Positions 200-59,768 of a stretch of DNA of 64,000 bases are shown one piece after another. Position numbers and translations under genes: made by a program. The DNA is from Clostridium sp. CAG:710 (GTDB lineage Bacteria > Bacillota_I > Bacilli_A > RF39 > UBA660), in NCBI GenBank assembly GCA_000432595.1, contig HF996865.1, positions 116 to 64,115 on the forward strand, in the 5' to 3' direction. Each line of letters begins with the position of its first letter. Positions within the stretch are counted from its first letter, which is position 1. Under the pieces are notes generated by a model. It worked only from the letters and a program-made list of their open reading frames with translations, had not been told where the DNA came from and ran no database searches.

Positions 200-232
200 A
201 TTGAACATTTTTTAGATTCCTTTAATTCGTAA

Positions 233-553
233 TTATTTTCTTTTATGTATAAAATAATTTGTAACATATCCTAAGAATATAGCAAATATTATAACATATA
301 ACCACATTAATAATGTATAAACAAGTCCAGAAGAATATCTTCCTATTATTGCCGCAATCGACTCTGGTAAATATTTGCCAATTAAACTTTTTAATTCTGG
401 AACAGTATTATTTTTTATAAAAGTCATTATTCTTAAAAATATATCGATAATTGCAAACGCATAAACAAAAGAAGAAAACTTTCTAAAAAATACAACAACA
501 ACTATTAATAAAATTAAAACTATAGCTAAATCTATATACATAACTAACACCAC
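233..553 (-). CDS. small hydrophobic membrane protein, function unknown
   Basis: 106-aa ORF with about three hydrophobic helices (LAIVLILLIVVVVFF, FAIIDIFLRIMTF, LLMWLYVIIFAIFLGYV). No recognisable family. Confidence 0.5.
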   Translation of the reverse strand: MVLVMYIDLAIVLILLIVVVVFFRKFSSFVYAFAIIDIFLRIMTFIKNNTVPELKSLIGKYLPESIAAIIGRYSSGLVYTLLMWLYVIIFAIFLGYVTNYFIHKRK

Positions 554-579
554 CTACAATAACAATAATACCATAAATC

Positions 580-1113: not shown

Positions 1114-1143
1114 ATTCTCACCATAATAATTATATATCAATAA

Positions 1144-2409: not shown

Positions 2410-3450
2410 CTATTTATCTACATTATTTGTAATAAACATTGCATCTCCAAATGAGAAAAATCTATATTTATTTAAAACAGCTTCATGGTATGCCTTCATT
2501 ATATTATCTTTTCCAGCAAGAGCACTTACTAGCATAACAAGTGTTGACTTTGGAAGATGAAAATTAGTAATTAAATTATCTACTATTTTAAATTTATATC
2601 CTGGATATATAAATATATCAGTAACTCCACTACACTCTTTTAATTCCCCAAATCTATTCATTACGGTCTCAAGCACACGAACACTAGTAGTTCCAACAAC
2701 AACTATTTTATTTCCGGACTCTTTTGTCTTATTTATAATATCACAAGTCTCTTTAGAAATAGAATAATACTCAGTATGCATCTTATGCTTAGTAACATCT
2801 TCAACATTAACAGGTCTAAAAGTACCAAGTCCAACATGTAATGTCAAATAAGCTATATTAACATTTTTATTTTTAATATCATTTAATAACTCTTTAGTAA
2901 AATGAAGTCCCGCAGTAGGTGCCGCCGCACTACCAATATTTTTTGCATACACCGTTTGGTATCTCGATTGATCTTCAAGTTTTTCATGAATATAAGGCGG
3001 AAGTGGCATAGTTCCTAACTTATCAAGAATCTCATATAGTATTCCATCATAACTAAGACTAAATACCCTAATACCTTCTTCTCCAACACTACTGCATGTA
3101 GCCTTCAACATTCCATCTCCAAAACTTATAACAGTTCCAACCTTAACTCTTTTAGCCGGTCTTGTTAAACACTCCCAGTTATTATCATCAATATTTTTCA
3201 AAAGAAGCAACTCAATTACTGCCCCAGTTTCTTCTTTTACACCAATAATTCTAGCTGGTATTACCTTTGTATCATTTAAAACTAAAGTATCTCCTGGATT
3301 TAAGTAATCTATAATATCAGAAAAAGTTTTATGGAAAATATTTCCATTTTGCTTATCTAAAACTAACATCCTAGAAGAATCTCTCTTTTTTAACGGAGTT
3401 TGAGCAATTAATTCTTCTGGTAAATAATAATCAAAATCATCTGTTTTCAT
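2410..3450 (-). CDS. queA: S-adenosylmethionine:tRNA ribosyltransferase-isomerase
   Basis: Full-length match to QueA hallmarks ([59 protein letters not shown]). Confidence 0.95.
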
Positions 3451-3459
3451 AACACACCT

Positions 3460-4503
3460 CTACTTCTCTTCTCCCATATCAAGTTCAACTTGTACAAGTG
3501 TACCTCCCTTAGGATTAAGCCCTAAATGTTTATATCCCTTATCAGTAACTATTCTACCTCTAGGAGTTCTTTTTATATATCCATTCTGTAACAAGAATGG
3601 TTCATAAACATCCTCAATAGTGGTAACCTCTTCACCAATAACACTAGCAATTGATTCGATTCCTACCGGTCCACCATTAAATTTTTCTATTATTCCACGC
3701 AATAACTGATGGTCAGTTTCATCAAGCCCATCTTGATCAACTTTTAATCTACCTAAAGCTCTTTTAGTAATATCAAGCGTTATTACTCCATCACCATCTA
3801 CAAGTGCAAAATCCCTTACACGTTTAAAAAGTCTGTTTGCAATTCTTGGTGTACCTCTACTACGACTTGCAAGTTCCATAGCAGCATCATCTTCAATTGG
3901 AACACCTAAAACTCTTGAAGTTCTTTTAACTATTTCCATCAATTCTTCATTTTCATAATATTTAAGCTTAGAAATTATTCCAAACCTATCCCTTAATGGT
4001 CCGGTTAAATCACCCGCACGAGTAGTTGCTCCTACTAAAGTAAATGGTGGTAAATTAATTTTAATATTTTTACTATTACCATCACCACCAACAATTATAT
4101 CAAGAGTAAAATCTTCCATAGCTGGATATAATATTTCTTCAATATAAGAAGGCATTCTATGTATCTCATCAATAAATAATACGTTCCCCGGTTCTAGTGA
4201 AGAAAGTATCGCCGCCAAATCTCCAGACTTTTCAATACTAGGACCACTTGCAGTTTTAATAGAAGTACCCATCTCATTTGCGATTATATAAGCAAGTGTT
4301 GTTTTTCCAAGTCCAGGAGGACCATATAATAAAACATGATCAAGTGTCTCGCCTCTCATCTTAGCAGCTTCTATAAAAACCTTAATATTTTCTTTAACAT
4401 CTTTCTGCCCAATATATTCACTTAAGAGTTCTGGTCTTATAGATTCTTCATTTACATCATCACCATCAATTTTCTCTTCACTAAGAATTTTTTCATCATC
4501 CAT
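3460..4503 (-). CDS. ruvB: Holliday junction branch migration helicase RuvB
   Basis: Walker [10 protein letters not shown], Walker [35 protein letters not shown]. Confidence 0.97.
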
Positions 4504-4514
4504 ACTAAAACCTC

Positions 4515-5036
4515 CTATTTTAAAATATCTAAAACTTCACTCCAACTATCTATTCTAGTTCTATTATCACCCTTACCAAATAATATTGGCTTAATAGAAG
4601 TATCAATTAATGAATCATAAACACTAACATTATCATCTATCATATAATCAATTCCTTCTTCTATGCAAATATCTTTTTTGTTTTCATATCCAAATAATAA
4701 TTTATCATATATAATACCATTTTTATTTAAATAATCAACAGTTAAATCATATATATTATCACTATATCTATTGCTTCTAGCAGTAATTATATATATTGTA
4801 TTCCCATCTTCTTTTAACTTTTTAATTGTATCAACGCAACCATCTTTTACAGTAAGAGAAGAAAATACTGGCTCTATATATTCTCTTAAAAATTTCTTAT
4901 ATTTATCAAATTCAGAAACAGTAAAATTAGAGTAATCTAGAGAAGTATCAACTGGAATTTCTAAGCTCTTCATACACTCATAAATCTTCTCTGTTGTATT
5001 TGTTATAGTATCATCAATATCAATTCCTATTTTCAC
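4515..5036 (-). CDS. HAD-superfamily hydrolase, 5'(3')-deoxyribonucleotidase-like
   Basis: N-terminal DxDxT motif ([12 protein letters not shown]) and a C-terminal DD acidic motif (MIDDN). Overlaps the 3' end of tdk. Confidence 0.6.
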
Positions 5037-5643
5037 CTTGTATTTCCCCTTTAACTTTTTTAAAATTTATCTTTTTAACTTTTTTTAAGTAACATTCTCC
5101 ACAAAGTGGAACATATTCTATATTACAAGTTCCATCTATTACAACTTCTTCTCCATTGGTTTCGAAAACACCATTTCTTTTTCTACCAACATATCTTGCG
5201 ATATTGCCACAAGAACAAAGTGTTGTTAACTCTTCTAATACATCAGCAAGTTCTAAAAGCCTTTTACTACCTTCAAAAGACTCAAGCATAAAATTTGTTC
5301 TAAGTCCATAACAAAGCACTGCTACATTCATTATTTTAGAAATCATCCAAAGTTCATCTACTTGAGAAGCTTTTAAAAACTGTGCCTCATCAACTAAAAT
5401 TACATTAACATCTGATATAGATGATCCAATTTTTTTAATAACTGAATCTCCCTCAAATATTAAAAAGTCAACATCTCTTTCAAGACCTATTCTAGAAGAA
5501 ATTTTATTACCTGCTTTTGTATCAATTGCTGGTTTTAAAACCAAAACTTTATAACCATTTTCTTCATAATTATAAGCTGTTCTCATTAAATCAATACTTT
5601 TACCAGAATTCATACTAGCATATTTAAAATGCATCTTTGCCAT
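5020..5643 (-). CDS. tdk: thymidine kinase
   Basis: P-loop SMNSGKS, VDEAQF, and a C-terminal zinc-ribbon cysteine pattern (CSCG...CGECY). Confidence 0.93.
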   Translation of the reverse strand: MAKMHFKYASMNSGKSIDLMRTAYNYEENGYKVLVLKPAIDTKAGNKISSRIGLERDVDFLIFEGDSVIKKIGSSISDVNVILVDEAQFLKASQVDELWMISKIMNVAVLCYGLRTNFMLESFEGSKRLLELADVLEELTTLCSCGNIARYVGRKRNGVFETNGEEVVIDGTCNIEYVPLCGECYLKKVKKINFKKVKGEIQGENRN

Positions 5644-5653
5644 AATAACCTCA

Positions 5654-6214
5654 CTATTTTAACAACAATTTTAAAGCTTCTTTTACTTGATTCTCAATAG
5701 ATAAATTAATATCCACTTTATTTATTACACTCTTAAATTCTTTTTCTTTATAACCCAAACCTTTTAATACTTCAATTAATTCCTCATAAGAATTAGTATC
5801 AACTACCTCTCCAGTAGCTATAACTCCAAGTTTGCCTTTTAAATCAAGTATTATTTGTTTAGCAACCTTATCTCCTATTTTAGGAAATTTCTTTAAATAA
5901 AGAATATTTTCTCTTTCAATAGCGTCTACAACTCCCGCAACTGAACCAGTCGCAAGTATAGGTAGTGTCATCTTAGGTCCTAATCCTTTAACACTTATTA
6001 ACTTTAAGAAAAGTTCTTTTTCTTCAATACTTTTAAACCCATATAATGATAACTCATCTTCTTTAACATTTTGAAAAACAAAAACTTTATATTCGTTTCC
6101 CTCATGAAATGAATATGGGTTTGGTGTATATATCAAATAACCAATACCATTATTATCAAGTATTATTGCGTTTGATACTATATTAGTTACAATACCTTTT
6201 ATATAATCATACAT
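5654..6214 (-). CDS. ruvA: Holliday junction DNA-binding protein RuvA
   Basis: MYDYIKGIV N-terminus, LYGF, helix-hairpin-helix (LISVKGLGPK, LKKFPKIGDKVAKQI). Confidence 0.9.
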   Translation of the reverse strand: MYDYIKGIVTNIVSNAIILDNNGIGYLIYTPNPYSFHEGNEYKVFVFQNVKEDELSLYGFKSIEEKELFLKLISVKGLGPKMTLPILATGSVAGVVDAIERENILYLKKFPKIGDKVAKQIILDLKGKLGVIATGEVVDTNSYEELIEVLKGLGYKEKEFKSVINKVDINLSIENQVKEALKLLLK

Positions 6215-6266
6215 ATTTAAATCCTCCTAAATAATTATACAATAAATTACACAAAAGAAAAAGAGG

Positions 6267-6298
6267 TTGACACCATTTACAACAATTATAATTATAAA
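6267..6298 (+). promoter_or_regulatory. candidate sigma-70-type promoter for the serpin gene
   Basis: Perfect TTGACA at 6267-6272 followed by an A/T-rich stretch with TATAAT-like hexamers (ATTATA at 18-nt spacing). The exact -10 is ambiguous. Confidence 0.35.
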
Positions 6299-6336
6299 AT
6301 ATTGCGGCTAACAAGTACATATGATTTAATATAATT

Positions 6337-7914
6337 ATGAAAGGTATGGTGAATATGGAAAAAGAAAAACAAAACAAAAAGAGCACAAAAATAATAATAG
6401 GAAGTGTTGTAGCCCTACTAATTATAGGCTGTGGAATTATATCTTACTTATATCTTAGTAAAAGTACAACAACAAAAACAAAAAAATTATATTCTCCTTA
6501 TGAATTATCAGGAAACAACTTAGAAAAGTTTGATCTTCAATTCTTAAAACTAGAAAATGAAGAAAAAAACAAAGCTTATAGTCCACTATCTATAAAGTAT
6601 GCATTAGAAATGCTTGCTGAAGGAGCTGATGGAAGTTCTAAAGAACAACTTGATAGTGTTATCGGAAAATATAAAGCAAGAAAATATGAAAATAATAAAA
6701 ATATGTCACTAGCAAATGCAATCTTTATAAAAAATGATTATAAAGATAAAATTAAAAGTGATTATGTAAATGCTTTAAAAAGTAAGTATAATGCAGAAAT
6801 AGTTTATGATAATTTTAAAGATGCTAAAGCATTAAACAATTGGGTAAGTGACAAAACACTTAAATTAATAAAAGGAATAGTAGATGATGATACAATTAGA
6901 GAAAAAAATTTCTCACTTGTAAATGCACTAGCTATTGATATGGAATGGATAAAAAAAATCCAATCTGAAGAGGATGGCATATATGTAGACTACTTTGGTG
7001 AAAGTTATAATTTTGTTATTCAACCACTTGAACTTGCGGGATATACAAACACAAAATTTAACAATAATAAAATCTCTGCAAAATCAGCACAGATAGGCGC
7101 AGTAGCAAATAAATATGATATTGTTAAAACACTAGGCGAAGATAAGATAAGAAAAACTGTTGGTGAAGCATATCAAGAATATTTAAAAGGAGAAATATGT
7201 GAAGATGAAGAAAAAGATGTAAATAAGTTTCTTGATAATTATATTGAAAATATAAATTCAAACTATAAAAGCATTTCTAGTTCTACAGATTTTAGTTTCT
7301 ATGATGATGATAATGTAAAAGTATTCGCAAAAGATTTAAAAACATATAATGGAATTACTATGCAGTATGTTGGAATTATGCCAAAGCAAAATAATCTTAA
7401 AGATTATATCAAATCAGTTGATGCAAAAGATATAAATAATATAATTAATAATTTAAAAGGAATTGAATTATCTGATTTTGAAGAAGGAACAATTACAGAA
7501 ATATATGGAACTATTCCAATGTTCAAATTCGATTATACTCTAAATTTAAAAGAAGATTTACAATCTTTAGGTATTAAAGATGTATTTAATGAAAAGAAAG
7601 CTAATTTATCTAAATTAACAAAAGAAAAAGGAATATTCATAGATAATATAGCACATAAAGCAAACATAGAATTCTCTAACGATGGTATTAAAGCAGGAGC
7701 TGTAACTGAAGTAGGACCTGCTGGTGCAACATCATGTGAATTTAGGTATGATTTCCCAGTTCCTGTTAAAAAGATTGATTTAACATTTAATAATCCTTAT
7801 TTATTCTTAATAAGAGATAAATCTACTGGTGAAGTATGGTTTACCGGTACAGTATATGAACCAATTGAATACACAGAAACCGATGGAATACTTGATAATG
7901 CAGAAGATGAATAA
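6337..7914 (+). CDS. membrane-anchored serpin-family protease inhibitor
   Basis: N-terminal TM helix (IIIGSVVALLIIGCGIISYLYL). Serpin N-terminal motif YSPLSIKYALEMLAEGADGSSKEQL, hinge-like GIKAGAVTEV, and C-terminal signature NNPYLFLIRDKSTGEVWFTGTVYEP. Alternative ATG starts lie at 6346 and 6355. Confidence 0.8.
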   Translation: MKGMVNMEKEKQNKKSTKIIIGSVVALLIIGCGIISYLYLSKSTTTKTKKLYSPYELSGNNLEKFDLQFLKLENEEKNKAYSPLSIKYALEMLAEGADGSSKEQLDSVIGKYKARKYENNKNMSLANAIFIKNDYKDKIKSDYVNALKSKYNAEIVYDNFKDAKALNNWVSDKTLKLIKGIVDDDTIREKNFSLVNALAIDMEWIKKIQSEEDGIYVDYFGESYNFVIQPLELAGYTNTKFNNNKISAKSAQIGAVANKYDIVKTLGEDKIRKTVGEAYQEYLKGEICEDEEKDVNKFLDNYIENINSNYKSISSSTDFSFYDDDNVKVFAKDLKTYNGITMQYVGIMPKQNNLKDYIKSVDAKDINNIINNLKGIELSDFEEGTITEIYGTIPMFKFDYTLNLKEDLQSLGIKDVFNEKKANLSKLTKEKGIFIDNIAHKANIEFSNDGIKAGAVTEVGPAGATSCEFRYDFPVPVKKIDLTFNNPYLFLIRDKSTGEVWFTGTVYEPIEYTETDGILDNAEDE

Positions 7915-7931
7915 AAAGTAAACATTATTAT

Positions 7932-7956
7932 AAAACCCTATCAATGATAGGGTTTT
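7932..7956. terminator. bidirectional terminator between convergent genes
   Basis: Perfect 11-bp stem AAAACCCTATC / GATAGGGTTTT with a 3-nt loop, flanked by A/T runs on both strands. Confidence 0.8.
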
Positions 7957-7975
7957 AATTTATCTTATAATACTT

Positions 7976-8707
7976 TTATAATTTTTCTATACTATAAAAA
8001 TAATAACTTCCATTATCTGTTTTAAATTTTATTCGGTAATGATCCTGATCATAACCTTCCCCTGCTGGATAGTTAAGTTCAATATTAAGTATCGCAAACA
8101 TATCATCATTTTTAAAACTTATAAGTTTAGCAAATTCTTGATAAGTAGTATTAGAGTATTTAAAAACAACAATATCCTTATTTTCAAAGTAATAATATGG
8201 AACAACTTTTTCTGTATTATTTTCTATATCAAGTGTATAATTTGGTCCAAAAATAAGCTTTGAAGTAGCTAATATATCATCTACTGAAGCATAATAATTA
8301 AAACATTCACTACCCTCTACAGATTTACTAGACAAGAAACCATTTTGTAAAAGTTCATCTTCTAAATCTGTTGAACAAACCTTATTTAATTTGTTACTAT
8401 CAATATTAGAAAATACTATTGCTAGTTTTTGTTCAAGCGTCATGTCATCCAATAGTAATTCACCCTTTTTAGTTGGATATGAATAACTAGGGGCAGGATC
8501 ACTTATTATTCTTTCAAATAATTTTGTAGCCTCTAACTTAGTAAATTCTTTCTTTTCTACACTTGCATTGTTATTATTTGAATTAACAACATTTGGCTTC
8601 TTTTCTTTGACCTTAGTATAAATTGTATAAAATACAAATACACATATAGCAACTAAAAGAAGTGAAAATATCAATTTTGTAATACTTATTCCTTTCTTTT
8701 GTTCCAT
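7976..8707 (-). CDS. membrane-anchored hypothetical protein
   Basis: 243-aa ORF with one N-terminal TM helix (LIFSLLLVAICVFVFYTIY) and a probably extracytoplasmic domain. No recognisable family. Confidence 0.5.
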   Translation of the reverse strand: MEQKKGISITKLIFSLLLVAICVFVFYTIYTKVKEKKPNVVNSNNNNASVEKKEFTKLEATKLFERIISDPAPSYSYPTKKGELLLDDMTLEQKLAIVFSNIDSNKLNKVCSTDLEDELLQNGFLSSKSVEGSECFNYYASVDDILATSKLIFGPNYTLDIENNTEKVVPYYYFENKDIVVFKYSNTTYQEFAKLISFKNDDMFAILNIELNYPAGEGYDQDHYRIKFKTDNGSYYFYSIEKL

Positions 8708-8725
8708 AAATTACTCCTTTCTAGA

Positions 8726-10354
8726 TTATCTACGTTCTAAAACCTCAATGATTGGAGGAAGAATTTGTTTTTTTCTAGAAACAACACCATCAAGATAATA
8801 TCCTTGAGTAAGATTTTCTATATTAAAGCTATCTTCCAATATATGTTTAGCTTTATCGTTAAATAATATGTAAGAACCATTCTTCATTACATCAGTAATA
8901 AATAATGTAACTATCATATAATCATTATTTATAGAAGTCTCATTTAATAATTTAACAAATGCAGCTTTATCAAGTTTTAAACTATTATAATCTGTAGTAA
9001 AGATTTGTCCAATACCAGATTCAATATTAGCAACTTTAAAGACTTTAAAGTCACTAAATAAAATTTGTTCCATACTTTTGCCTTTAATAGAAGAACCTGC
9101 CCTAAACATTTCTATTCCATATTTTTCATAATCAACACCGGCAATCATACTTAATCTAAATACAGCTTGTTTATCTAATTGAGTAGTAGTTGGTGATTTT
9201 AATAAAAGTGTATCAGATATTATTCCAGATAACATTATACCAGCAATATCTTTTGGTATAGGAAAATTATTTTCTTCATATAATTGATGTATTATTGTAT
9301 TAGTACTTCCAACTGCCATATTTCTAAAGTTTATTGGCGAAGATGTAGTTAGTGTACCTATTTTATGATGGTCAATCACTTCAATTATGTCCGATTCCTC
9401 TATTCCATCAACACTTTGAACTATTTCATTATGATCAACTAAAATTACTTTTTTCTTATTTTTATCATTTATATCAACAAGTCTTAAAAAGCCTAAACAA
9501 TTATTTTCCTTATCAACTATTGGGTAATTTGTATGTTTTGTCTGATTACTAACTTCAACAAAATCACTCAAATAATCATTTTCCTCAAAATAAATTGGAT
9601 CTCTAGTAAGAATTATATCATCAATATAATTACTTAAATTTATTAATTTAGTAGTATGGAAAGTATCATAGTGGGTCTTAACTACATTTACTTTATTTTT
9701 CTTAGCAACCTCTAAGTGTTCCTCTTTAATTTCTCCATCTCCTACTATTATTATCATTTTAACAGAGGAATTAACTGCATATTCTAGTATACTATGACGA
9801 TCCCCTACTATTAATATAGTATGCTTATCTAAGTCAATATTATTTAAAAAAGTTGTACTTCTATATGATGCAGTTAAAATATTTCCCTCTATTTCATTAT
9901 CGAATCTTAATACTTCACTACCACCTAATGCATCTAAAATATTGTCATAAGAAGTCTTAAGTTTAATTATATCTCCCTCTATAAAATATGAAGATATATC
10001 TTTTAACGTAATTATACCAACTAATTTGCCACCCTCATCAACAACAGGTGCCCCACTTATTTTATCGCTTTTTAATATGTCATAACATTTTTTAATAGAT
10101 ATATGCCTATTAATTGATATTCTATTATAATTAACATCCTTTATTTGGGTTTTAACATCATTCAAATACTCAGGACAATTAACATTAAAATATTTAAGTG
10201 CAAACTTCGTTTCATTGTTTAATCTACCTAAAACTTTTGCTTCTGCATCAAAACCTTGTTTATTTTTCAAATAAGCTAATGATATCGCAGAAGTAACCGA
10301 ATCAGTATCTGGTTTTTTATGTCCAAAAATATATATTTTACCCATTCTATTCAC
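8726..10354 (-). CDS. ppaC: family II (DHH) inorganic pyrophosphatase with CBS/DRTGG insert
   Basis: DHH motifs HKKPDTDS, LVDHNE, EVIDHHKIG and a DHHA2 C-terminus. A CBS-pair-like insert (SGAPVVDEGGKLVGIITLKDI) sits between them. Confidence 0.85.
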   Translation of the reverse strand: MNRMGKIYIFGHKKPDTDSVTSAISLAYLKNKQGFDAEAKVLGRLNNETKFALKYFNVNCPEYLNDVKTQIKDVNYNRISINRHISIKKCYDILKSDKISGAPVVDEGGKLVGIITLKDISSYFIEGDIIKLKTSYDNILDALGGSEVLRFDNEIEGNILTASYRSTTFLNNIDLDKHTILIVGDRHSILEYAVNSSVKMIIIVGDGEIKEEHLEVAKKNKVNVVKTHYDTFHTTKLINLSNYIDDIILTRDPIYFEENDYLSDFVEVSNQTKHTNYPIVDKENNCLGFLRLVDINDKNKKKVILVDHNEIVQSVDGIEESDIIEVIDHHKIGTLTTSSPINFRNMAVGSTNTIIHQLYEENNFPIPKDIAGIMLSGIISDTLLLKSPTTTQLDKQAVFRLSMIAGVDYEKYGIEMFRAGSSIKGKSMEQILFSDFKVFKVANIESGIGQIFTTDYNSLKLDKAAFVKLLNETSINNDYMIVTLFITDVMKNGSYILFNDKAKHILEDSFNIENLTQGYYLDGVVSRKKQILPPIIEVLERR

Positions 10355-53736: not shown

Positions 53737-53766
53737 AATAAAAAGGCCAGTTTTACCTAGCCTTTT
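53737..53766 (-). terminator. terminator behind the relic ppdK 3' end
   Basis: On the minus strand: AAAAGGCTAG-GTAAAA-CTGGCCTTTT (10-bp stem, one mismatch) followed by TTATTAT. It lies 18 nt after the relic stop codon. Confidence 0.65.
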
Positions 53767-53781
53767 ATACTTCAAATATTA

Positions 53782-53811
53782 TTTTACTTTCCTGCTTTGA
53801 TTGCAGCTTGT
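53782..53811. repeat. direct repeat copy 1 (30 bp, 1 mismatch) duplicating the ppdK 3' end
   Basis: TTTTACTTTCCTGCTTTGATTGCAGCTTGT here versus TTTTATTTTCCTGCTTTGATTGCAGCTTGT at 55240-55269. The core 24 nt are identical. Confidence 0.9.
53784..53810 (-). pseudogene. relic 3' fragment of ppdK (QAAIKAGK-stop)
   Basis: The minus-strand reading CAA GCT GCA ATC AAA GCA GGA AAG TAA equals the last 8 codons plus stop of the intact ppdK at 55242, with one synonymous change. Confidence 0.6.
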
Positions 53812-53888
53812 ACCACAGTTTAGTTTGGGATGCTTTAATATTTTTTCCAACTAATTGACTTAATGTTTTTTTCTTTTAAATTTTTTGC

Positions 53889-53920
53889 AAAAAATAGGGC
53901 TCTATCCTAAAATAGACCCC
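53889..53920 (-). terminator. terminator after the Abi gene
   Basis: On the minus strand: GGGGTCTAT-N6-ATAGAGCCC (one G-G mismatch) followed by TATTTTTT. Confidence 0.55.
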
Positions 53921-53987
53921 TTACAAAAATGATTTAACATTTTTTCCTTGCACAGATAATATATCACAAATATTTTTCTATGTCAAA

Positions 53988-54980
53988 CTATTGTTCCAAA
54001 TTTTCTTTATAATTTTTCTCAATAATTTTATCGAAATAATTATATATGGATTTCAATAGTCCATTATTATTATAGTATTTTCCGTTTAAAATTATTCTTC
54101 CATAAAATAATTTTGTAATATCGTGTTTTACATTATTCTTTATGCCCTCACTACTTACTATAATATTAAACATATATAAAGTATAGGTAATTTGTCTTAT
54201 TCTAGAATTAGAAAGTTTAGTATTTCTGTTCTCTTTCCCAATGTCACAATCCTTTAAATAATTAATAACTAGCGTATCAACTCTATGTGTATTGTCTTTT
54301 TTGTCTAGATCACATAATACACAAGAATTATGAGCAACAGCATTTCTAAGTTTATTTACTTCTCTTAAAATAAATATATATTTATTGTCGTCTAAAATAT
54401 AATACTTAGTAAAGAAATCAAAGAAATTAATCAATTCACCAAATGTGATTATTTCAAGAAATTCCCAAATAGGTATATTTTCTATTTTAGTATCTTTATC
54501 TAAATCGTATTTAGAAAATATTTTTTGATAATACTCATTTGATACTTTTTTTCTAATGCTTTCATGCACTCTTTTAGGACGTTCCTTATCATTAAAATCT
54601 TTTTCCAAATATAAATTAACAATTTTATAACCATCTTCTTCTGATATTTCCTCAATAGTATTTAGTATTCTTATTTTTAAATAATGTTCTATATCAATTA
54701 TCATTTTAAATAATACTAGTCTAGTTCTATAGTCTATAATAGATAAATCTTTTAAATATGCAAAATCTAAATCTATATATTTTCCTTCAAGCTCACCACA
54801 TTGATATTTAACAAAATCATTTTTATATGATGTTACATTATAATAGTTATTATTTTCTTTTAAATATATTTCAGCATCCTGTTCTAAACAACATTCAAAT
54901 TTAATGTTTTTATTTTTCAAATAAGGAACCATATCAGATATTTTCATCATTGGACTTAATATCAAAGTTTTATTATTCAT
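53988..54980 (-). CDS. Abi_2 (AbiD/AbiF-like) abortive infection family protein
   Basis: 330 aa with the LRNAVAHNSCV motif (RNxxAHxxx) typical of Abi_2/AbiD-type proteins. Strong RBS GGAGGG. Confidence 0.7.
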   Translation of the reverse strand: MNNKTLILSPMMKISDMVPYLKNKNIKFECCLEQDAEIYLKENNNYYNVTSYKNDFVKYQCGELEGKYIDLDFAYLKDLSIIDYRTRLVLFKMIIDIEHYLKIRILNTIEEISEEDGYKIVNLYLEKDFNDKERPKRVHESIRKKVSNEYYQKIFSKYDLDKDTKIENIPIWEFLEIITFGELINFFDFFTKYYILDDNKYIFILREVNKLRNAVAHNSCVLCDLDKKDNTHRVDTLVINYLKDCDIGKENRNTKLSNSRIRQITYTLYMFNIIVSSEGIKNNVKHDITKLFYGRIILNGKYYNNNGLLKSIYNYFDKIIEKNYKENLEQ

Positions 54981-55056
54981 AATTACCCTCCTATTTGGAT
55001 TTTTAATAGATAATTATATTTTATCATAAATATTAATGGATTTTTACTTTAGACGC

Positions 55057-55097
55057 AAAAAAAGGCTGAGATTTACGACATAAAAGTCATCTCAGTC
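55057..55097 (-). terminator. terminator after the intact ppdK
   Basis: On the minus strand: GACTGAGAT-N16-ATCTCAGCC followed by a T7 run. Confidence 0.7.
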
Positions 55098-55239
55098 TTA
55101 AAATTATATATAAGCATCAAGAATAATAAGTGGTTTTTTAATGACTATATTTTTGCATTCAGGTATATCATTTCTATACCTCATAATATCGTCATTTATA
55201 ATAATTATATGAGTTAAAACACTTTATTCTCTTATCTAT

Positions 55240-55269
55240 TTTTATTTTCCTGCTTTGATTGCAGCTTGT
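55240..55269. repeat. direct repeat copy 2 (functional ppdK 3' end)
   Basis: See copy 1. Covers the last 8 codons and part of the ninth, the stop codon and 3 nt of flank. Confidence 0.9.
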
Positions 55270-57866
55270 GCAGCAGCAAGTCTAGCTATTGGAACTCTAA
55301 ATGGTGAACAAGATACATAATCAAGTCCAATCTTGTTACAGAATTCAACACTTGATGGATCTCCACCATGTTCTCCACAAATACCAATATGTAATTTTGG
55401 ATTAACTGGTTTTCCAAGTTTTACAGCAATTTCCATTAATTTTCCAACACCATCTTGATCAAGTTTAGCAAATGGATCATTTTCAAAAATCTTATTATCA
55501 TAGTAAGAATTTAAGAATTTACCAGCATCATCTCTTGAGAATCCAAATGTCATTTGAGTTAAGTCATTTGTACCGAAGCAGAAGAAGTCAGCTTCTTTAG
55601 CTATTTCATCAGCAGTTAAAGCAGCTCTTGGAATTTCTATCATAGTACCAACTTCGTATTCTAAGTCAATACCCGCAGCTTTAATTTCTGCATCAGCAGT
55701 TTCAACTACTACATTCTTAACAAATTTTAATTCTTTAACTTCACAAACAAGTGGAATCATTATTTCTGGTTTAATATTCCAATCTGGATGTGCTTTTTTA
55801 ACATTAATTGCAGCACGAATTACAGCTTTAGTTTGCATTTTAGCTATTTCTGGATAAGTTACAGCTAAACGACATCCTCTATGTCCCATCATTGGGTTAA
55901 ATTCATGTAAAGATGCAATTAAGTTTTTAATATATTCAACACTCTTACCTTGTGCATCAGCAAGTTTTTTGATATCAGCTTCTTCAGTTGGAACGAACTC
56001 ATGTAGAGGTGGATCCAAGAATCTTATTGTAACTGGATATCCTTCTAGTGCTTCATATAATTTTTCAAAGTCACCTTGTTGGTAAGGTAAAATCTTATCA
56101 AGGGCAGTTTCTCTTTCTTCAACACTGTCAGAACAAATCATTTCTCTAAATGCAGCAATTCTATCTGCTTCAAAGAACATATGCTCTGTACGGCAAAGAC
56201 CAATTCCTTCTGCACCAAGTTCTTTTGCTTTTTTAGCATCAGCAGGTGTATCAGCATTAGTTCTAACTTTTAATGTTCTGAATTTATCAGCCCATTCCAT
56301 AACTCTACCGAATTCTCCAGCAATTTTAGCATCAACTGTAGGAATAATTCCATCATATATATTACCAGTAGAACCATCTATTGAGATATAATCTCCTTCA
56401 TGATAAGTTTTACCAGCAAGAGTAAATTTCTTATTTTCTTCATCCATTGCGATATCCCCGCAACCAGATACACAGCAAGTACCCATACCACGAGCAACAA
56501 CAGCAGCGTGACTTGTCATTCCTCCACGAACAGTTAAGATACCTTGACTAGCTTTCATACCAGTAATATCTTCTGGAGAAGTTTCAAGTCTAACAAGTAC
56601 AACTTTTTCTCCTCTTTCATTCCATTTTTCTGCATCTTCTGCAGTAAATACGATTTTACCACAAGCAGCTCCTGGAGATGCTCCTAAACCTTTACCAGCA
56701 GGTACAGCTTTTTTAAGTGCAGCCCCATCAAATTGTGGATGTAGTAATGTGTCTAAGTTACGAGGATCAATCATAGCTACAGCTTCTTCCTCTGTTCTCA
56801 TACCTTCGTCAACTAAATCACAAGCAATTTTTAAAGCAGCTTGAGCTGTTCTTTTACCATTTCTTGTTTGTAACATATAAAGTTTACCATGTTCAACAGT
56901 AAATTCCATATCTTGCATATCTCTATAATGATTTTCAAGTGTTTCACAAACTTTTTTAAATTCTTTAAATGCTTCTGGAAATTTTTCTTCCATTTCAGCA
57001 ATATGCATTGGAGTTCTAACACCAGCAACAACGTCTTCACCTTGTGCGTTAGTTAAGAATTCTCCGAATAATCCTTTTTCTCCTGTTGCTGGGTCACGAG
57101 TAAATGCAACACCAGTACCACAGTCATCTCCCATGTTACCAAAAGCCATTGCTTGTACGTTTACAGCAGTTCCCCATGAATAAGGAATATCATTATCTCT
57201 TCTGTAAACATTAGCTCTTGGGTTATCCCATGAACGGAATACTGCTTTAATAGCACCCATTAATTGTTCTTTTGGATCAGTTGGGAAATCAGTTCCTATT
57301 TTTTCCTTATATTCAGCTTTGAACTTTCTAGCTAATTCTTTTAAATCATCAGCATCAAGTTCAATATCTTGGGTAACTCCTTTTTTAGTTTTCATCTCAT
57401 CAATAAGTTGTTCAAAATATTTTTTACCAACTTCCATAACTACATCAGAATACATTTGGATAAATCTTCTGTAGCAGTCCCAAGCCCAACGTGGATTATT
57501 TGATTTTTCAGCTATTACATTAACAACATCTTCATTAAGACCTAAGTTAAGAATAGTATCCATCATACCAGGCATAGATGCTCTAGCACCACTTCTTACA
57601 GAAACTAATAATGGATTTTCCTTATCTCCAAATTTCTTTCCTGTAATTTCTTCCATTTTTCCAATGTACTCATTAATTTGAGATTGAATTTCTTCATTAA
57701 TCTCTCTACCATCTTCATAGTATTGAGTACATGCTTCAGTAGTAATTGTAAAACCTTGAGGTACTGGTAAACCAATGTTAGTCATTTCTGCTAAGTTAGC
57801 ACCTTTACCACCAAGAAGGTTTCTCATATCAGCATTACCTTCACTGAATAAATATACATATTTCAT
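55242..57866 (-). CDS. ppdK: pyruvate, phosphate dikinase
   Basis: 874 aa. GGKGANLAEM, phosphohistidine region GGMTSHAAVVARG, and C-terminal PEP-utilising motifs (CRTEHMF, FFCFGTNDLTQ, GICGE). Confidence 0.97.
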   Translation of the reverse strand: MKYVYLFSEGNADMRNLLGGKGANLAEMTNIGLPVPQGFTITTEACTQYYEDGREINEEIQSQINEYIGKMEEITGKKFGDKENPLLVSVRSGARASMPGMMDTILNLGLNEDVVNVIAEKSNNPRWAWDCYRRFIQMYSDVVMEVGKKYFEQLIDEMKTKKGVTQDIELDADDLKELARKFKAEYKEKIGTDFPTDPKEQLMGAIKAVFRSWDNPRANVYRRDNDIPYSWGTAVNVQAMAFGNMGDDCGTGVAFTRDPATGEKGLFGEFLTNAQGEDVVAGVRTPMHIAEMEEKFPEAFKEFKKVCETLENHYRDMQDMEFTVEHGKLYMLQTRNGKRTAQAALKIACDLVDEGMRTEEEAVAMIDPRNLDTLLHPQFDGAALKKAVPAGKGLGASPGAACGKIVFTAEDAEKWNERGEKVVLVRLETSPEDITGMKASQGILTVRGGMTSHAAVVARGMGTCCVSGCGDIAMDEENKKFTLAGKTYHEGDYISIDGSTGNIYDGIIPTVDAKIAGEFGRVMEWADKFRTLKVRTNADTPADAKKAKELGAEGIGLCRTEHMFFEADRIAAFREMICSDSVEERETALDKILPYQQGDFEKLYEALEGYPVTIRFLDPPLHEFVPTEEADIKKLADAQGKSVEYIKNLIASLHEFNPMMGHRGCRLAVTYPEIAKMQTKAVIRAAINVKKAHPDWNIKPEIMIPLVCEVKELKFVKNVVVETADAEIKAAGIDLEYEVGTMIEIPRAALTADEIAKEADFFCFGTNDLTQMTFGFSRDDAGKFLNSYYDNKIFENDPFAKLDQDGVGKLMEIAVKLGKPVNPKLHIGICGEHGGDPSSVEFCNKIGLDYVSCSPFRVPIARLAAAQAAIKAGK

Positions 57867-57992: not shown

Positions 57993-58445
57993 CTAATTAA
58001 GTATTGCAATTCCTAAATTTAAATAAAAAGCAAATATAATCCATAAAACATATGGTATTAAATAATTAGAAGCACTCTTATTAATTTGTCTAAACTTAAT
58101 AAAAGTTATAACGACACTCAAAATAAGCAAGGCAAGTATTACAACTGCAAAACTAAACATCCTAAATCTAAAAAAGATTATTGACCATATAAAATTTAAA
58201 AATAGTTGAACATAATACCAAACACATGCATTATTTAAAATATAGTTATCTTTCTTTATATAATAAAAAGATATACCCATAAGTAAATACAAAATTGGCC
58301 ATACAATCCCAAATACATATCCCGGTGGAGATAATGGAGGTTTAATAATAGAAGAATATAAATCAAAATTCCCACTAAATAATGCACTTACCCAACCACC
58401 TAATAATGGAAAAAATAAATAAAATAAATTTTTTCTCAATTTCAA
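57993..58445 (-). CDS. tspO: TspO/MBR family tryptophan-rich sensory protein
   Basis: 150 aa with five TM helices. Pattern IKPPLSPPGYVFGIVWPILYLLMG. TTG start preceded by GGTGAT. Confidence 0.8.
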   Translation of the reverse strand: MKLRKNLFYLFFPLLGGWVSALFSGNFDLYSSIIKPPLSPPGYVFGIVWPILYLLMGISFYYIKKDNYILNNACVWYYVQLFLNFIWSIIFFRFRMFSFAVVILALLILSVVITFIKFRQINKSASNYLIPYVLWIIFAFYLNLGIAILN

Positions 58446-58514: not shown

Positions 58515-59768
58515 TTAATTACAAAGTCCAAAAATACAATCACATGGATCATTACCAACACCAAAGTATTGAATAAAATCATCATTTTTTGTTAAAATTT
58601 TCTTAGTATCTGAATTAAAGCAAACCCTAACGCCACTATCTCCATTAGTAAAATATTCAAATCCCCATGTATTAAGTCCAGTATTATCGCCAAAATGTTC
58701 ACTATCACAAGAATTAAATACTTCACCTTGACTATTAATACTATAATTTTCCTTCCAAACGCCAATTTTTTGAGCAAAAGAATTGTTAAGACCTCTAATA
58801 TAAAGATAACCATTATAAATAGTTAAATAATATTCATTATTGTCAAACAATGTTTGAAAGTCACCAACTATCTTATATGAATTTAATTTTTTACCATTTG
58901 CATCATATAAACTTACACTATCTTTATTTTTATTCATTACATAAATACCATCTGAAGTAACATTGTAATAACTAGAAAAAATCTTCTTGAATTTCGAGTT
59001 ATATAATCCAGAATCAATATGATATACCACACCACTATTTGTATGGAATTTATCAACAAATTTTTCTCCAGATAAAGAATAAACCTTTTTACCAGAATCA
59101 ATATTAAAAATATATGTATTTGAATTTATTGGTTTTCCATCATTATATTCTTGTTTTATCGCAACAACTTCATTCTCATCTAAAATATGTAAATAGTCAT
59201 AATCATCATTAAACATTATCTTATCTGTCTTAAAATTATACATTCCAGCATTCTTATATTCTTCGTGTCTTATAAGACATGCTTCAGGAAAATCATCATC
59301 TTTAGGCTTTTCCTTATGTTCTTCTATATTATAAAAAACAATACCCACAATTTTATTATCCTTTGATAATCCTATCTCATAATTTTCATATTTATTATCT
59401 AAATTAATCTTATACACTCTACTATCAAGAGTACTATATATTTTAAGTCCATTATCATCATATAAAATGTATGGTTCTTTATTTAAAGAAGAAATAGGAA
59501 TAACTAAAAATTTAGCATCCTTACTCTCTGTAGGAATAGTAAATGCTGTATCGCAGTCAAAACACTTATTTTCAAAATAAGTATCGCCAGACTTATAAAG
59601 ATTAAGTGTATATGGATATCTAGATGTATCCACTGCCTTCTTAACTTCTTTTTTATTATTTTTTATAACTTTACTATTAGTTAAAAAATATATCAAAGGA
59701 GATACTATACACGCAATAAGTAAAACAACTAAAACCTCTAAAATTAAATTATTATTCTTTTTCATCAA
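58515..59768 (-). CDS. membrane-anchored hypothetical protein (probably extracytoplasmic, repeat-like beta-rich domain)
   Basis: N-terminal TM helix. Recurrent aromatic/Gly/Asn-rich segments. C-terminus GNDPCDCIFGLCN. Confidence 0.5.
   Translation of the reverse strand: MMKKNNNLILEVLVVLLIACIVSPLIYFLTNSKVIKNNKKEVKKAVDTSRYPYTLNLYKSGDTYFENKCFDCDTAFTIPTESKDAKFLVIPISSLNKEPYILYDDNGLKIYSTLDSRVYKINLDNKYENYEIGLSKDNKIVGIVFYNIEEHKEKPKDDDFPEACLIRHEEYKNAGMYNFKTDKIMFNDDYDYLHILDENEVVAIKQEYNDGKPINSNTYIFNIDSGKKVYSLSGEKFVDKFHTNSGVVYHIDSGLYNSKFKKIFSSYYNVTSDGIYVMNKNKDSVSLYDANGKKLNSYKIVGDFQTLFDNNEYYLTIYNGYLYIRGLNNSFAQKIGVWKENYSINSQGEVFNSCDSEHFGDNTGLNTWGFEYFTNGDSGVRVCFNSDTKKILTKNDDFIQYFGVGNDPCDCIFGLCN

Follow-up and report, generated by a model that had tools for sequence, protein, structure and literature searches.

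The window, by which we mean the whole 64,000-nucleotide stretch of DNA analysed here, carries on its reverse strand a ppdK gene whose last codons occur twice, once at the functional end of the gene and once beyond a cassette of 1.46 kb (1,458-1,459 bp) in which abi is the sole protein gene (Table 1). As first described, the two copies (53782-53811 and 55240-55269) form a direct repeat of 30 nt with one mismatch that runs from the ppdK codons for ..QAAIKAGK through the stop into a few nucleotides of flank, and the distal copy is in frame and ends in a stop, with AAG replacing AAA. All of this was seen again here, and the 30-mer, sought with as many as three mismatches allowed, has exactly two sites within the 64 kb, against none expected from 100 shuffles. 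The terminator said to lie shortly past the distal stop was also found, starting 17 nt beyond it. The statement that similarity ends sharply at the repeat edges needs amending on the ppdK side, where a repeat search stretches the match to 37 nt at 89% identity (53782-53818 / 55240-55276) and similarity fades over the seven extra nucleotides (CTGTGGT versus CTGCTGC).

Table 1. ppdK, the cassette and the displaced gene end in the window, listed in the ppdK direction (a slash marks the cassette junction; L numbers denote other contigs and loci).
Feature	Position	Strand	Basis
ppdK, pyruvate phosphate dikinase, 874 aa, target gene	55242..57866	-	Pfam PPDK_N, PEP-utilizers, PEP-utilizers_C
Proximal repeat copy (attL side), functional ppdK tail ..AAA/QAAIKAGK and stop	55240..55276	-	same codon position as junction in all other hosts
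AAATAG immediately 3' of ppdK stop	55236..55241	-	direct reading and tail comparison
7-bp perfect inverted repeat AGGTATA-N7-TATACCT, cassette left end, no T-run after it	55161..55181	.	kept in other cassette copies
Cassette-borne hairpin CTGAGAT..ATCTCAG, then T7	55057..55097	-	direct reading; kept in L155, L166, L258
Extended -10 element TGATAAAAT, about 40 nt upstream of abi ATG	55018..55026	-	direct reading; kept in L155, L176, L257, L258
abi, 330 aa, Abi_2 / AbiD-AbiF family, HEPN motif RNAVAH at residues 212-217	53988..54980	-	Pfam, PADLOC, motif
Near-consensus sigma-70 promoter TTGACA-17-TATATT with TG, 11/12 positions, 2 nt past abi stop	53958..53986	-	promoter scan; alignment
Candidate small RNA of about 65 nt, two hairpins, the second a terminator	53889..53951	-	fold z-score -4.1; consensus structure
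Right-end arm ('P arm') ATATTAAAGCATCCCAAACTAAACTGTGGTA, conserved	53811..53841	-	Abi cassette of all hosts and MazG cassette of L155
Distal repeat copy, displaced native ppdK tail CAA..AAG TAA (QAAIKAGK and stop)	53784..53810	-	
Original ppdK intrinsic terminator	53741..53766	-	same hairpin directly 3' of ppdK in empty-site L002, L003, L139

Between the repeats, the Abi_2 gene and the 7-bp inverted repeat stand as described, but the accompanying sequence had been taken for terminators only, and it also holds a strong promoter and an RNA-like unit of about 65 nt. Thus, while abi is indeed the only protein gene of what was called a minimal single-gene cassette, the cassette is probably not strictly single-gene, since a conserved small RNA unit comes after abi. 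On the other side of abi, the hairpin and T7 run likely constitute the terminator that now serves ppdK (the terminator scanner passed over it, its loop being longer than 8 nt), and the extended -10 element is the likely abi promoter. The AAATAG that immediately follows the ppdK stop is a vestige of the last lysine codon and the stop of a surrogate tail borne by the cassette, which reads ..QK, TAG ATA in L155, L166, L168 and L258. The right-end arm is about 31 nt long, with the consensus C[CT]CAAAC-N12-/CAAGC. We considered that the arm might be decayed upstream ppdK sequence and dropped the idea, the resemblance being gapped and not significant.

The 330-aa Abi protein had been assigned to the Abi_2 family, and the profile search agrees: Pfam Abi_2 (PF07751) matches residues 42-221 with E 4.7e-23 and 82.9 bits (cut-off 25.6), and the PADLOC AbiD model matches with E 2e-15. 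NCBIfam models gave no match to Abi, nor did a PDB sequence search. Its HEPN Rx4-6H motif, here of the Rx4H form, sits at the AbiF active-site position, which is R202/H207 and R210/H215 in characterised proteins, and among 30 homologs R212 is invariant and H217 nearly so. The AlphaFold (AF2) model is poor (mean pLDDT 59, pTM 0.48), and with it the top PDB fold match, PbAbiF (8vz6_A), is not significant (E 0.39, TM 0.27-0.30). Taken together, the profile and the catalytic motif indicate that Abi is very probably a HEPN toxin, and its toxicity would be that of an RNase.

Noncoding RNA antitoxins are known for AbiF (PMC12373285, PMC12737573), and in C. difficile the RNA partner RCd22 lies 5' of the gene (PMC12373285). 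Here the candidate lies on the opposite side. The hexamers of its sigma-70 promoter are invariant in 13 of 13 aligned contexts; the 17 pairs of its consensus structure include one compensatory change and several that are one-sided; and the promoter-RNA-terminator unit accompanies abi even outside ppdK contexts. A single orphan copy of the unit was found without abi, in L256, and we rejected the notion that it is a phage anti-defence decoy, its setting being a chromosomal restriction-modification / IS110 island, not a phage. A 12-codon mini-ORF (MLNHFCKGSILG, then stop) was likewise rejected as the main product of the 3' unit because in L170 it is frameshifted and starts with GTG, whereas a compensatory change preserves the hairpin. 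Searches of Rfam over both flanks of abi and over five loci gave no credible match, and the abiF motif RF03085 had none at E up to 10. We offer only tentatively the idea that the RNA of about 65 nt may be the antitoxin of Abi.

The empty site predicted for related strains, namely a ppdK stop, a short spacer and the terminator, does exist. Contigs with identical PpdK protein fall into four arrangements, and in the contigs L003 and L002 the ppdK stop is followed by AATAATATTTGAAGTAT, 17 nt, and then by the same terminator as in the window. Comparison of L006 with L003 reveals a clean insertion of 1,459 bp with 30 bp duplicated, between flanks that are 98.9% and 99.4% identical, and the empty L003 and occupied L006 have a common ppdK haplotype. 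In the same species, a different cassette, of the HTH_3/KilA-N type, is flanked at this site by a repeat of 62-68 nt, and the repeat/cassette structure recurs in more than 20 independent assemblies. A degenerate pattern for AAIKAGK and stop, run over genome contigs, matched mainly at the end of ppdK in unrelated taxa and revealed no second copies, but turned up the species representative, L139. Within the species, 11 of 1,494 columns vary, a level that would suit a cassette long resident and spreading by ordinary homologous recombination, as opposed to one still transposing.

Beyond this species, the cassette end joins identical ppdK codons in at least seven host backgrounds, all gut Bacilli. 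The junction reads GTA/CAAGC in every host, falling between the codons AAA/QA, and the arm (..CTAAACTGTGGTA) is followed by the host's own tail and terminator; in the proximal copy of the window, the corresponding junction is GCA/CAAGC, between 55269 and 55268. The displaced tails are those of their hosts: KAGK in the window, INNK in L154 and L168, IKANN in L164, AKVKETMNK in L165, L166 and L169, IKNN in L257 and IKAKNNK in L258, each before a stop. Transfer has been horizontal, to judge from identities: hosts with PpdK at 65-66% identity (L154, L166) have Abi at 95.5%, and with PpdK at 70% (L160) Abi is at 88%, or 88-96% overall in hosts with PpdK merely 65-70% identical, and the whole cassette retains 93-97% nucleotide identity, its non-coding portions included. 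The genes downstream of the site differ from host to host. The preliminary description had proposed a site-specific insertion that rebuilt the ppdK 3' end, and the same cassette end at the same codons in at least seven hosts supports it: this is a site-specific horizontal insertion at ppdK, a conclusion of which we are all but certain.

The cassettes also stack. In L258 the order is ppdK, an HTH_3 cassette, the Abi cassette and the native tail, so that three tails stand in a row; in L155 it is ppdK, a MazG cassette and then Abi; and in L168 it is ppdK, a cassette with a 420-aa ORF, and then the Abi cassette with abi deleted. Each of these partners (HTH_3/KilA-N, MazG and the 420-aa ORF) leaves a displaced tail, and the 31-nt arm is common to two different cassettes, those of Abi and of MazG in L155.

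The same comparison bears on the nature of the repeat. In other hosts the cassette brings a surrogate tail, QAA[IV]KS..QK and stop, that differs from that of the host: in L166, for example, the functional tail QAAVKSGMQK is followed by the cassette left end and the remnant is AKVKETMNK, with only ACAAGC in common, and the same cassette tail is the middle remnant in L155, L168 and L258. Because these hosts have a different surrogate tail and ACAAGC alone is common, the repeat of 24-30 nt is not the recombination (att) core; attL and attR in other hosts share only these 6 or so nucleotides. The proximal tail resembles that of the host in the window species, in L154 and in the HTH_3/KilA-N cassette, giving repeats of 21-68 nt. 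Repeats of that length are not explained by a single conservative exchange at ACA/AGC with a foreign attP, and one has to suppose either a secondary conversion or a lineage of the cassette adapted to its host.

What moves the cassette is a separate question. The absence of an integrase noted earlier is borne out, in that neither the cassette nor the 64-kb window holds a recombinase gene. We searched all ORFs of the window and of the low-GC loci by tblastn and phmmer with Xer-like, phage-type tyrosine, and large and small serine recombinase seeds, and found no tyrosine or serine recombinase in the cassette, in the window or beside the site in any low-GC locus; the sole seed matches were an Xer-like gene upstream of ppdK (L155-L160) and a resolvase (L150), and no recombinase recognising the ppdK site was found in low-GC Bacilli. 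No ICE or IME occupies the site in any low-GC locus examined, and no parent element was found, the tandem partners being other small cassettes. Neither a circular form nor a free attP was found; L257, a contig of 1,459 nt, was entertained as a circle and rejected, being a chromosomal fragment of another host. The suggested search for the core beside integrases or other cargo gave nothing relevant when core, arm and cassette-tail patterns were run against IMG/VR, and the IMG/VR, phage and plasmid collections contain neither the cassette nor its arm nor Abi relatives. ppdK itself is present on 79 IMG/VR contigs, commonly at or near the contig end, with tyrosine integrases or a large serine recombinase directly downstream; the large serine recombinases adjoin ppdK on high-GC Clostridia contigs only, one ppdK-adjacent example being L191 (3066-4850), and the BVU3359-type tyrosine integrase, the BVU3432/3433 regulatory pair and T4SS genes are present in the Bacteroidota-type loci. 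The reconstructed attP and attB show no more dyad symmetry than shuffles do (the best case, the L166 reconstruction, pairs 15 of 27 positions about the junction, p about 0.08), and we therefore claim neither a serine nor a tyrosine mechanism. Nonetheless, since the cassette is without a recombinase, one encoded elsewhere must move it, in trans or in cis, and a dedicated, trans-acting enzyme seems likely. We infer, rather than observe, what can be said of the class and identity of that enzyme and of the current mobility of the cassette.

Overall, the account that we favour, and regard as quite probable, is that of a discrete, horizontally mobile mini-cassette, site-specific for the last codons of ppdK, moved by a recombinase encoded elsewhere and carrying an AbiF-like toxin with a small RNA. 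In such a scheme, the cassette of 1,458-1,459 bp would recombine site-specifically at GCA/CAAGC (..AAA/QAAI.. in the protein). Its order in the ppdK direction is surrogate tail and stop, hairpin and terminator, promoter and abi, the RNA of about 65 nt and the 31-nt arm, and its insertion displaces the native ppdK tail and terminator, leaving them as an untranslated remnant. The expected circular junction would read ..AACTAAACTGTGGTA/CAAGC, tail, TAGATAAGAG.., and the reconstructed attP would be ..CTAAACTGTGGTA/CAAGC..TAG ATA.., with ppdK attB as its partner. The recombinase encoded elsewhere would shuttle the cassette as for cis-mobilizable and pseudo-SCC elements, and successive insertions of different cassettes at one point would give rise to short tandem rows of genes of the defence type. 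After establishment in a host, Abi would most likely be a toxic HEPN RNase, inactive until phage infection, and the co-inherited small RNA would be what restrains it, as in the AbiF type III-like toxin-antitoxin.

One can go further and see in the ppdK tail of a clade of uncultured low-GC gut Bacilli the place where an array of cassettes docks, a functional analogue of the integron built on the coding end of a housekeeping gene. A dedicated recombinase, encoded elsewhere in the genome or on a helper element, would carry self-expressed defence mini-cassettes from species to species, each with its surrogate tail and arm. In this view the Abi cassette represents an AbiF subclass with a 3' RNA antitoxin that lacks the abiF motif, but we consider this fuller reading rather unlikely. 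Unlikely too is the rival that survives best, in which a larger prophage, ICE or IME once integrated at the ppdK tail and decayed to att sites and one cargo gene, an immobile relic that has since spread only vertically or by homologous recombination. Large integrase-bearing elements do use the ppdK site in other phyla and classes, the HTH_3/KilA-N cassette resembles the regulatory end of one, some diversity, though little, exists within the species, and the searches for a recombinase and a circle came up empty. What a relic does not account for is that the 1.46-kb unit, intact at either end, occupies one and the same junction in hosts that differ by 30-35% in PpdK and also in their downstream genes. 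Identical boundaries are not expected from independent decay, and homologous recombination cannot put the unit beside unrelated flanks; thus, the unit has moved between species in small form at least several times. The earlier suggestion of a remnant of a larger island fares no better, in that the cassette is not a one-off but a discrete unit that recurs across species.

A site-specific enzyme could be dispensed with altogether if, after DNA uptake, ppdK served as a homologous anchor and the other joint was made by illegitimate recombination at microhomology. ppdK is conserved highly enough to act as an anchor, the attL joint of the window can be written, by direct reading, as an exchange within an AAAA microhomology, and a 5.9 kb microhomology deletion adjoins. 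We judge this highly improbable: illegitimate joints would scatter, whereas the right joint falls at the identical nucleotide in seven hosts, beside a 31-nt arm that belongs to two cassettes; the ppdK 3' end of carriers shows no donor-like SNP tract or cluster; and elsewhere an integrase has been proven to target these codons. Less credible still, to the point where we give it hardly any weight, is the idea that the common ancestor of these Bacilli acquired the insertion once, and that its descendants inherited it vertically and lost it many times over via the repeats. The repeats could mediate deletion, and the ppdK haplotype common to L003 and L006 would fit, but hosts with PpdK at 65-66% identity have Abi at 95.5%, the remnant tails match the current tail of each host instead of having drifted, the downstream genes differ per host, and the 93-97% nucleotide identity of the whole cassette rules out extreme purifying selection with matching synonymous divergence. 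A chance repeat or an assembly artefact, which has only the AT-richness of the region in its favour, is already refuted by two matches against none expected and by the more than 20 independent assemblies, and its probability is practically nil.

With the mobile mini-cassette as the preferred reading, the ppdK 3' end widens from a published attB of conjugative transposons in Bacteroidota to an insertion hotspot across phyla, occupied by integrase-bearing elements in Clostridia and by very small, recombinase-less defence cassettes in uncultured Bacilli. The cassettes offer a clear natural case of single defence genes crossing between distant hosts without visible mobility genes, a question that recurs for defence islands. 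Their ends are known to the nucleotide, and attP and attB could be synthesized to seek the recombinase, which might in turn be put to use as an integration tool where genetic manipulation is difficult. As for the conserved 3' RNA unit, it may represent a second kind of antitoxin RNA for AbiF, and it bears on the proposed evolutionary path from AbiF to Cas13.

Among known systems, the nearest in target is that of the PvCTn-like elements, conjugative transposons of gut Bacteroidota for which the ppdK 3' end is the attB (PMC11005914). Both they and the cassette use the target codons A-A-Q-A-A-I/V near the ppdK stop (by direct reading, GCT GCA CAA GCT GCA ATC AA in the window agrees with the published motif at 18 of 20 positions), and both show imperfect attL/attR direct repeats, a regenerated gene end and stop, and a site common to different elements. 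The PvCTn-like elements, however, are tens of kilobases long, belong to Bacteroidota and carry T4SS genes and a BVU3359-type tyrosine integrase directly downstream of ppdK, whereas the cassette is 1.46 kb, has no integrase or transfer genes, and resides in uncultured Bacilli of 26% GC. Searches of the cassette and window found no BVU3359-type integrase, BVU3432/3433 regulatory pair or T4SS genes.

In size and content, the cassette is closer to the CIMEs of streptococci (PMC7563491), elements of 1.2-13 kb that sit at the 3' ends of fda, rpsI, rpmG and tRNA-Lys and grow by tandem accretion; like them, it is small, has att-derived repeats and cargo without an integrase or relaxase, and stacks in tandem. 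Of the features by which CIMEs are recognised, att-derived repeats at an integrative-element site and an empty allele are present here, and genes for an integrase, a relaxase and a coupling protein are absent. CIMEs, for their part, are defined as decay products of an ICE or IME and lie beside a functional ICE or IME able to mobilise them, and the identical ends of the cassette in many species speak for repeated movement in small form.

A further parallel lies in the SCC and pseudo-SCC elements of staphylococci, which insert at the 3' end of rlmH (orfX), restore the gene end, are flanked by short direct repeats and build composite tandem islands, and whose recombinase-less members are thought to be moved in trans by the Ccr serine recombinases. 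Gene, host and scale of cargo all differ from ours, and no Ccr-like gene was found here. Integron cassettes are likewise small and recombinase-less, gather in an array at a single site and terminate in a recombination arm; in contrast to them, the Abi cassette lacks an adjacent intI and imperfect palindromes of the attC type and has promoters and terminators of its own, and the counterpart of the 'attI' is the coding end of a housekeeping gene, rebuilt by each cassette.

The toxin, for its part, resembles AbiF, AbiD and AbiD1 in its Abi_2 profile match and in the placing of RNxxxH, at residues 212-217 here and 202-207 and 210-215 there. As in C. difficile AbiF-RCd22 (PMC12373285) and PbAbiF-AbiFr (PDB 8VZ6), a single toxin on a mobile element is closely linked with a small structured RNA that has a terminator of its own. 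It departs from AbiF in that the RNA is 3' of the gene, with its own promoter, in single copy and without RF03085, and in having no significant match to the solved structures. By analogy, then, the cassette appears most akin to CIME or pseudo-SCC-like elements, and its toxin to the AbiF toxin-antitoxin.

Repeat search and profile matches confirm what the preliminary description had read from the sequence by eye, an Abi_2-type gene at the 3' end of ppdK flanked by 30-bp direct repeats with one mismatch. The inner 30 nt of the repeat pair differ only in the last Lys codon, AAA versus AAG, and the 30-mer has exactly two occurrences across the 64-kb window and none in 100 shuffles. Direct reading of the distal copy as ..TVVQAAIKAGK*, in frame and with its stop, likewise agrees with the earlier account, as do the persistence of the displaced ppdK end with its terminator and the lack of an integrase in the cassette. 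The site-specific insertion proposed there is upheld, and is extended by the comparison of hosts that follows.

Coordinates of features in the window and in comparison loci (L-numbers denote contigs or loci fetched from genome, metagenome or IMG/VR collections)
Sequence	Feature	Position	Strand	Remarks
Window	ppdK	55242-57866	minus	874-aa ORF, all three PPDK domains
Window	direct repeat pair	53782-53818 / 55240-55276		37 nt at 89%, repeat search
Window	intrinsic terminator	53741-53766		17 nt past distal stop; sole one the scanner finds in the area
Window	abi ORF	53988-54980	minus	330 aa; Pfam Abi_2 E 4.7e-23, PADLOC AbiD E 2e-15
Window	inverted repeat	55161-55181		matches the preliminary description
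Window	150-aa protein just upstream of ppdK	57993-58445	minus	TspO match sub-threshold (78.8 bits vs cut-off 180)
Window	conserved 417-aa protein just upstream of ppdK	58515-59768	minus	no family match
L002	HTH_3/KilA-N cassette bounds	8607-8670 and 9879-9939		62-68-nt direct repeat = ppdK tail + terminator
L002	inverted repeat, HTH_3 promoter region	8683-8700		perfect 8+8, TGTTGCGT-AA-ACGCAACA
L155	Xer-like tyrosine recombinase gene	1160-2053		~300 aa; low-GC Bacilli background
L160	Xer-like tyrosine recombinase gene	238-1161		~300 aa; second low-GC Bacilli background
L155	tRNA-like sequence after Abi cassette	7240-7320		anticodon loop CTCTTAATC; where arm + remnant would be
L169	block of ORFs with 5'-truncated Abi	79-1578, 3421-4413, 4394-5095	reverse as fetched	
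L175	polynucleotide kinase/phosphatase/ligase-type protein	1-1207		AAA_33, Metallophos, RNA_lig_T4_1; upstream of remnant + Abi
L175	methyltransferase, Rce1-like, acyltransferase, AMP-binding, radical-SAM, HAD genes	3214-9668		upstream of remnant + Abi
L256	orphan promoter + ~65-nt RNA unit	2483-2587	minus	91% identical over 115 nt, without abi

Contigs encoding exactly the window's PpdK protein were looked up; they come from gut metagenome assemblies and show four arrangements downstream of ppdK: A, that of the window, with Abi and then ABC/FtsX/RR/HK genes; B, with HTH_3, KilA-N and the ABC genes onward; C, with HTH_3, a truncated KilA-N and tRNA_edit onward; and D, with Abi, HTH_3 and a remainder like that of C. 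The Abi-free site that had been predicted is found in B and C, where the ppdK stop is followed by AATAATATTTGAAGTAT and then the terminator hairpin, identical to the window downstream of the distal copy. Contigs L006 (arrangement D) and L003 (arrangement C) have a common ppdK synonymous-site haplotype and align at 98.9% identity as far as the repeat and at 99.4% starting with its second copy, both L006 repeat copies aligning to the one copy in L003; what separates the two contigs is therefore a clean 1,459-bp insertion that duplicates 30 bp. Variation among the cassette copies of this species affects 11 of 1,494 columns, and residence of the cassette there is thus not very recent. The species representative in the genome collection (L139, an 'uncultured Bacilli bacterium' MAG from Hadza samples, PpdK 98.7% identical) probably has arrangement B, going by BLAST similarity. 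Arrangements C and D also lack about 5.9 kb comprising the KilA-N 3' part, the tail remnant and the ABC/FtsX/RR/HK genes; the joint (L003:9267-9309 compared with L022:4213-4255 and L022:10095-10137) has a short imperfect microhomology (GGT..AACATTT), and in the resulting fusion the N-terminal part of KilA-N runs into the histidine kinase gene's end.

The same cassette is found, at the same nucleotide, in other hosts. The protein collection holds about 950 relatives of the Abi protein, the best 120 of which are all at least 79-80% identical. Those at 88-96% identity lie directly 3' of ppdK in genomes with different neighbouring genes. Those at 80-84% are not at ppdK and have in common the gene and its 3' unit but not the cassette ends. 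A metagenome collection was scanned for the cassette's conserved right end and the hits were pooled with the looked-up loci. The 31-nt right-end arm, ATATTAARGCATYYCRAMCTAAACTGTRGTA, is always joined, at one and the same codon, to the CA[AG]GC.. of a ppdK tail, and the host's own tail and terminator come next. That native tail reads QAAIKAGK* in the window, QAAINNK* in L154 and L168, QAAIKANN* in L164, (Q)AKVKETMNK* in L165, L166 and L169, QAAIKNN* in L257, and QAAIKAKNNK* in L258, whose whole cassette (own tail to arm) has 93.7% nucleotide identity to the window copy over 1,550 nt.

Decay of a larger element is a possible origin for the cassette, but it leaves unexplained why distant hosts have the unit again and again with the same ends. 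Homology-facilitated illegitimate recombination is unlikely to have made the insertion: the joint is invariant, and the carriers' ppdK has no donor-like SNP tract, its synonymous variation being scattered over 38 sites of which none is linked to Abi except the last Lys codon, which is polymorphic. A strictly vertical relic is contradicted, and vertical inheritance ruled out, by PpdK being much more divergent than Abi (65% against 95.5% in L154, 66% against 95.5% in L166, 70% against 88% in L160).

The site-specific insertion can be placed more exactly from the junctions. In L166 the functional ppdK end, QAAVKSGMQK*, is followed immediately by the cassette left end (TAG ATAAAAGAGC..), the remnant past the arm is AKVKETMNK*, and only ACAAGC is common to both junctions. 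Tails of the cassette type (QAAIKSGAQK*, QAAIKSKTQK*, QAAINSKTQK*) form the middle remnant in L155, L168 and L258, abutting the cassette left end. The cassette thus acts like a classical 3'-end-integrating element that brings a replacement gene end. Judged from these junctions, the long repeat is not the recombination core, and the exchange point lies at GCA|CAAGC or immediately beside it. In the window species, host-like and cassette tails are both 11 codons long, and the proximal tail resembles the host's as far as TAA AA and then reads A TAG ATA AGA G, a vestige of the cassette tail's last codons. Given this host-like proximal tail, the 30-nt repeat needs either a secondary event, which might have been conversion or exchange at an A-run, or a cassette lineage that would have adapted to the host; the 21-nt repeat of L154 raises the same need.

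Neither the cassette nor the rest of the 64-kb window encodes a tyrosine or serine recombinase, and none adjoins the site in any of the low-GC loci; the sole related gene among the low-GC loci is Xer-like, lies one or two genes upstream of ppdK (L155-L160) and is absent from the window. Six Bacteroidota genomes (L029, L031, L056, L099, L135, L141) also have an Xer-like gene immediately upstream of ppdK. These positions may be accidental, or the gene may be connected with the ppdK tail serving as an attachment site. Pattern scans, with one circle candidate checked, found neither a circular form nor a free attP, and dyad symmetry at the att site is not significant.

In gut Bacteroidota, PvCTn-like conjugative transposons and other elements use the same ppdK codons as their attB, and integration by a BVU3359-type integrase leaves imperfect attL/attR repeats and a regenerated stop codon (PMC11005914). 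The window's GCT GCA CAA GCT GCA ATC AA matches the published motif at 18 of 20 positions. Scanning IMG/VR with PpdK gave 79 'viral' contigs (L177-L255) that carry ppdK, commonly at or near the contig end. About 28 of them are Bacteroidota-type, with a 401-498-aa integrase 200-300 nt past ppdK (~1 kb in L211). The Clostridia-type contigs have many different surrogate tails; L191 encodes a 594-aa large serine recombinase 133 nt after ppdK, in L247 and L254 tyrosine integrases follow ppdK at a distance of about 8 kb, and L189 carries a compact element that, with its D5-type primase and large serine recombinase, looks like a phage satellite. Only L185 (32% GC) falls below 36% GC, and none is near the window's 26.5%. 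These elements and the published attB together make the ppdK tail a cross-phylum hotspot for recombinase-bearing elements, and the cassettes described here are the small, recombinase-less end of that range. The presence of ppdK on these 79 contigs implies prophages, satellites or conjugative elements at this site in many gut Bacteroidota and Clostridia; more than 15 different regenerated ppdK tails occur among them.

The ppdK attB gathers other mini-cassettes as well. In arrangement B the HTH_3 (82 aa) and KilA-N (274 aa) pair is itself a ppdK-site cassette, with a right-end arm (..AAAGTTGTCAGTTACA|CATGTTGC in L002) unlike that of Abi; the inverted repeat in its promoter region is likely an operator for HTH_3 autoregulation. 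Loci L155-L159 read ppdK(..KSKNN*), terminator, MazG, arm and remnant, Abi, and the right end of the MazG cassette is the Abi cassette's 31-nt arm. L168 reads ppdK(..NEKK*), a 420-aa ORF, remnant, an Abi cassette whose abi is reduced by deletion to its last 19 codons, arm and native remnant, and L258 has three ppdK tails in series. Arms of different cassettes have a loose common pattern, C[CT]CAAAC-N12-|CAAGC or GTGG[CT]A|CAAGC. In L175 and L176, a tail remnant and Abi come after a long biosynthetic gene cluster, and no ppdK lies within 10 kb; the upstream genes of L175 may be a very large cassette at the ppdK site or a relocated block. In L169, a 5'-truncated Abi gene still ends in the cassette arm and ppdK-tail remnant. 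The ORFs directly upstream, assigned by eye only, resemble the C-terminal part of Cas1, Cas2 and Csn2 (type II CRISPR-associated-like), another there is NERD/HRDC-like by eye, and a gap of about 1.8 kb may contain a CRISPR array; the Abi cassette may here have taken up a larger defence block by recombination.

Abi_2 and AbiD-AbiF proteins are toxic HEPN RNase dimers neutralised by a cis-encoded ncRNA, as in C. difficile RCd22 with its two abiF motifs and PbAbiF-AbiFr (PDB 8VZ6); the catalytic residues of characterised AbiF proteins are R202/H207 and R210/H215, and proteins of this type are regarded as Cas13 ancestors (PMC12373285, PMC12737573). The cassette's protein has the motif RNAVAH at residues 212-217, with R212 invariant and H217 nearly so in an alignment of 30 homologs. 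Its AlphaFold model is poor (pLDDT 59; best PDB match 8vz6_A, E 0.39, not significant) and PDB sequence searches gave no match, so family membership rests on the profile matches and the motif.

Two nucleotides past the abi stop lies a near-consensus promoter (TTGACA-17-TATATT with TG), and the next ~65 nt fold into two hairpins, the second being a terminator (z-score -4.1). Across 13 contexts this unit hardly varies, even in those away from ppdK whose abi is only 80% identical, so that its conservation exceeds that of the coding sequence; upstream regions of abi have no conservation between contexts. The consensus fold comprises 17 pairs, among which one change (A-U to G-C) is compensatory and several others are one-sided; a 12-codon ORF embedded in the unit is frameshifted in L170; and no Rfam family, the abiF motif included, matches it. 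We tentatively propose, with the balance of doubt against it, that this RNA could be the cognate AbiF-type partner (antitoxin). The orphan unit in L256, amid a radical-SAM gene, a short-chain dehydrogenase, a DpnII restriction-modification system and an IS110 transposase, is probably a leftover after abi was replaced.

Overall, the feature is a defined AbiF cassette at the ppdK attB, mobile across species and without a recombinase of its own. What is new is its very small size with exact ends, its host range and the arrays, together with a 3' RNA unit that lacks the abiF motif beside Abi. Both components are nonetheless of known kinds, 3'-end-restoring integrative elements or CIME-like derivatives on the one hand and AbiD/F toxins on the other. 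Pseudo-SCC elements are comparable to these recombinase-less cassettes. So are the cis-mobilizable elements (CIMEs), which the Abi cassette resembles as a small element without a recombinase (PMC7563491).
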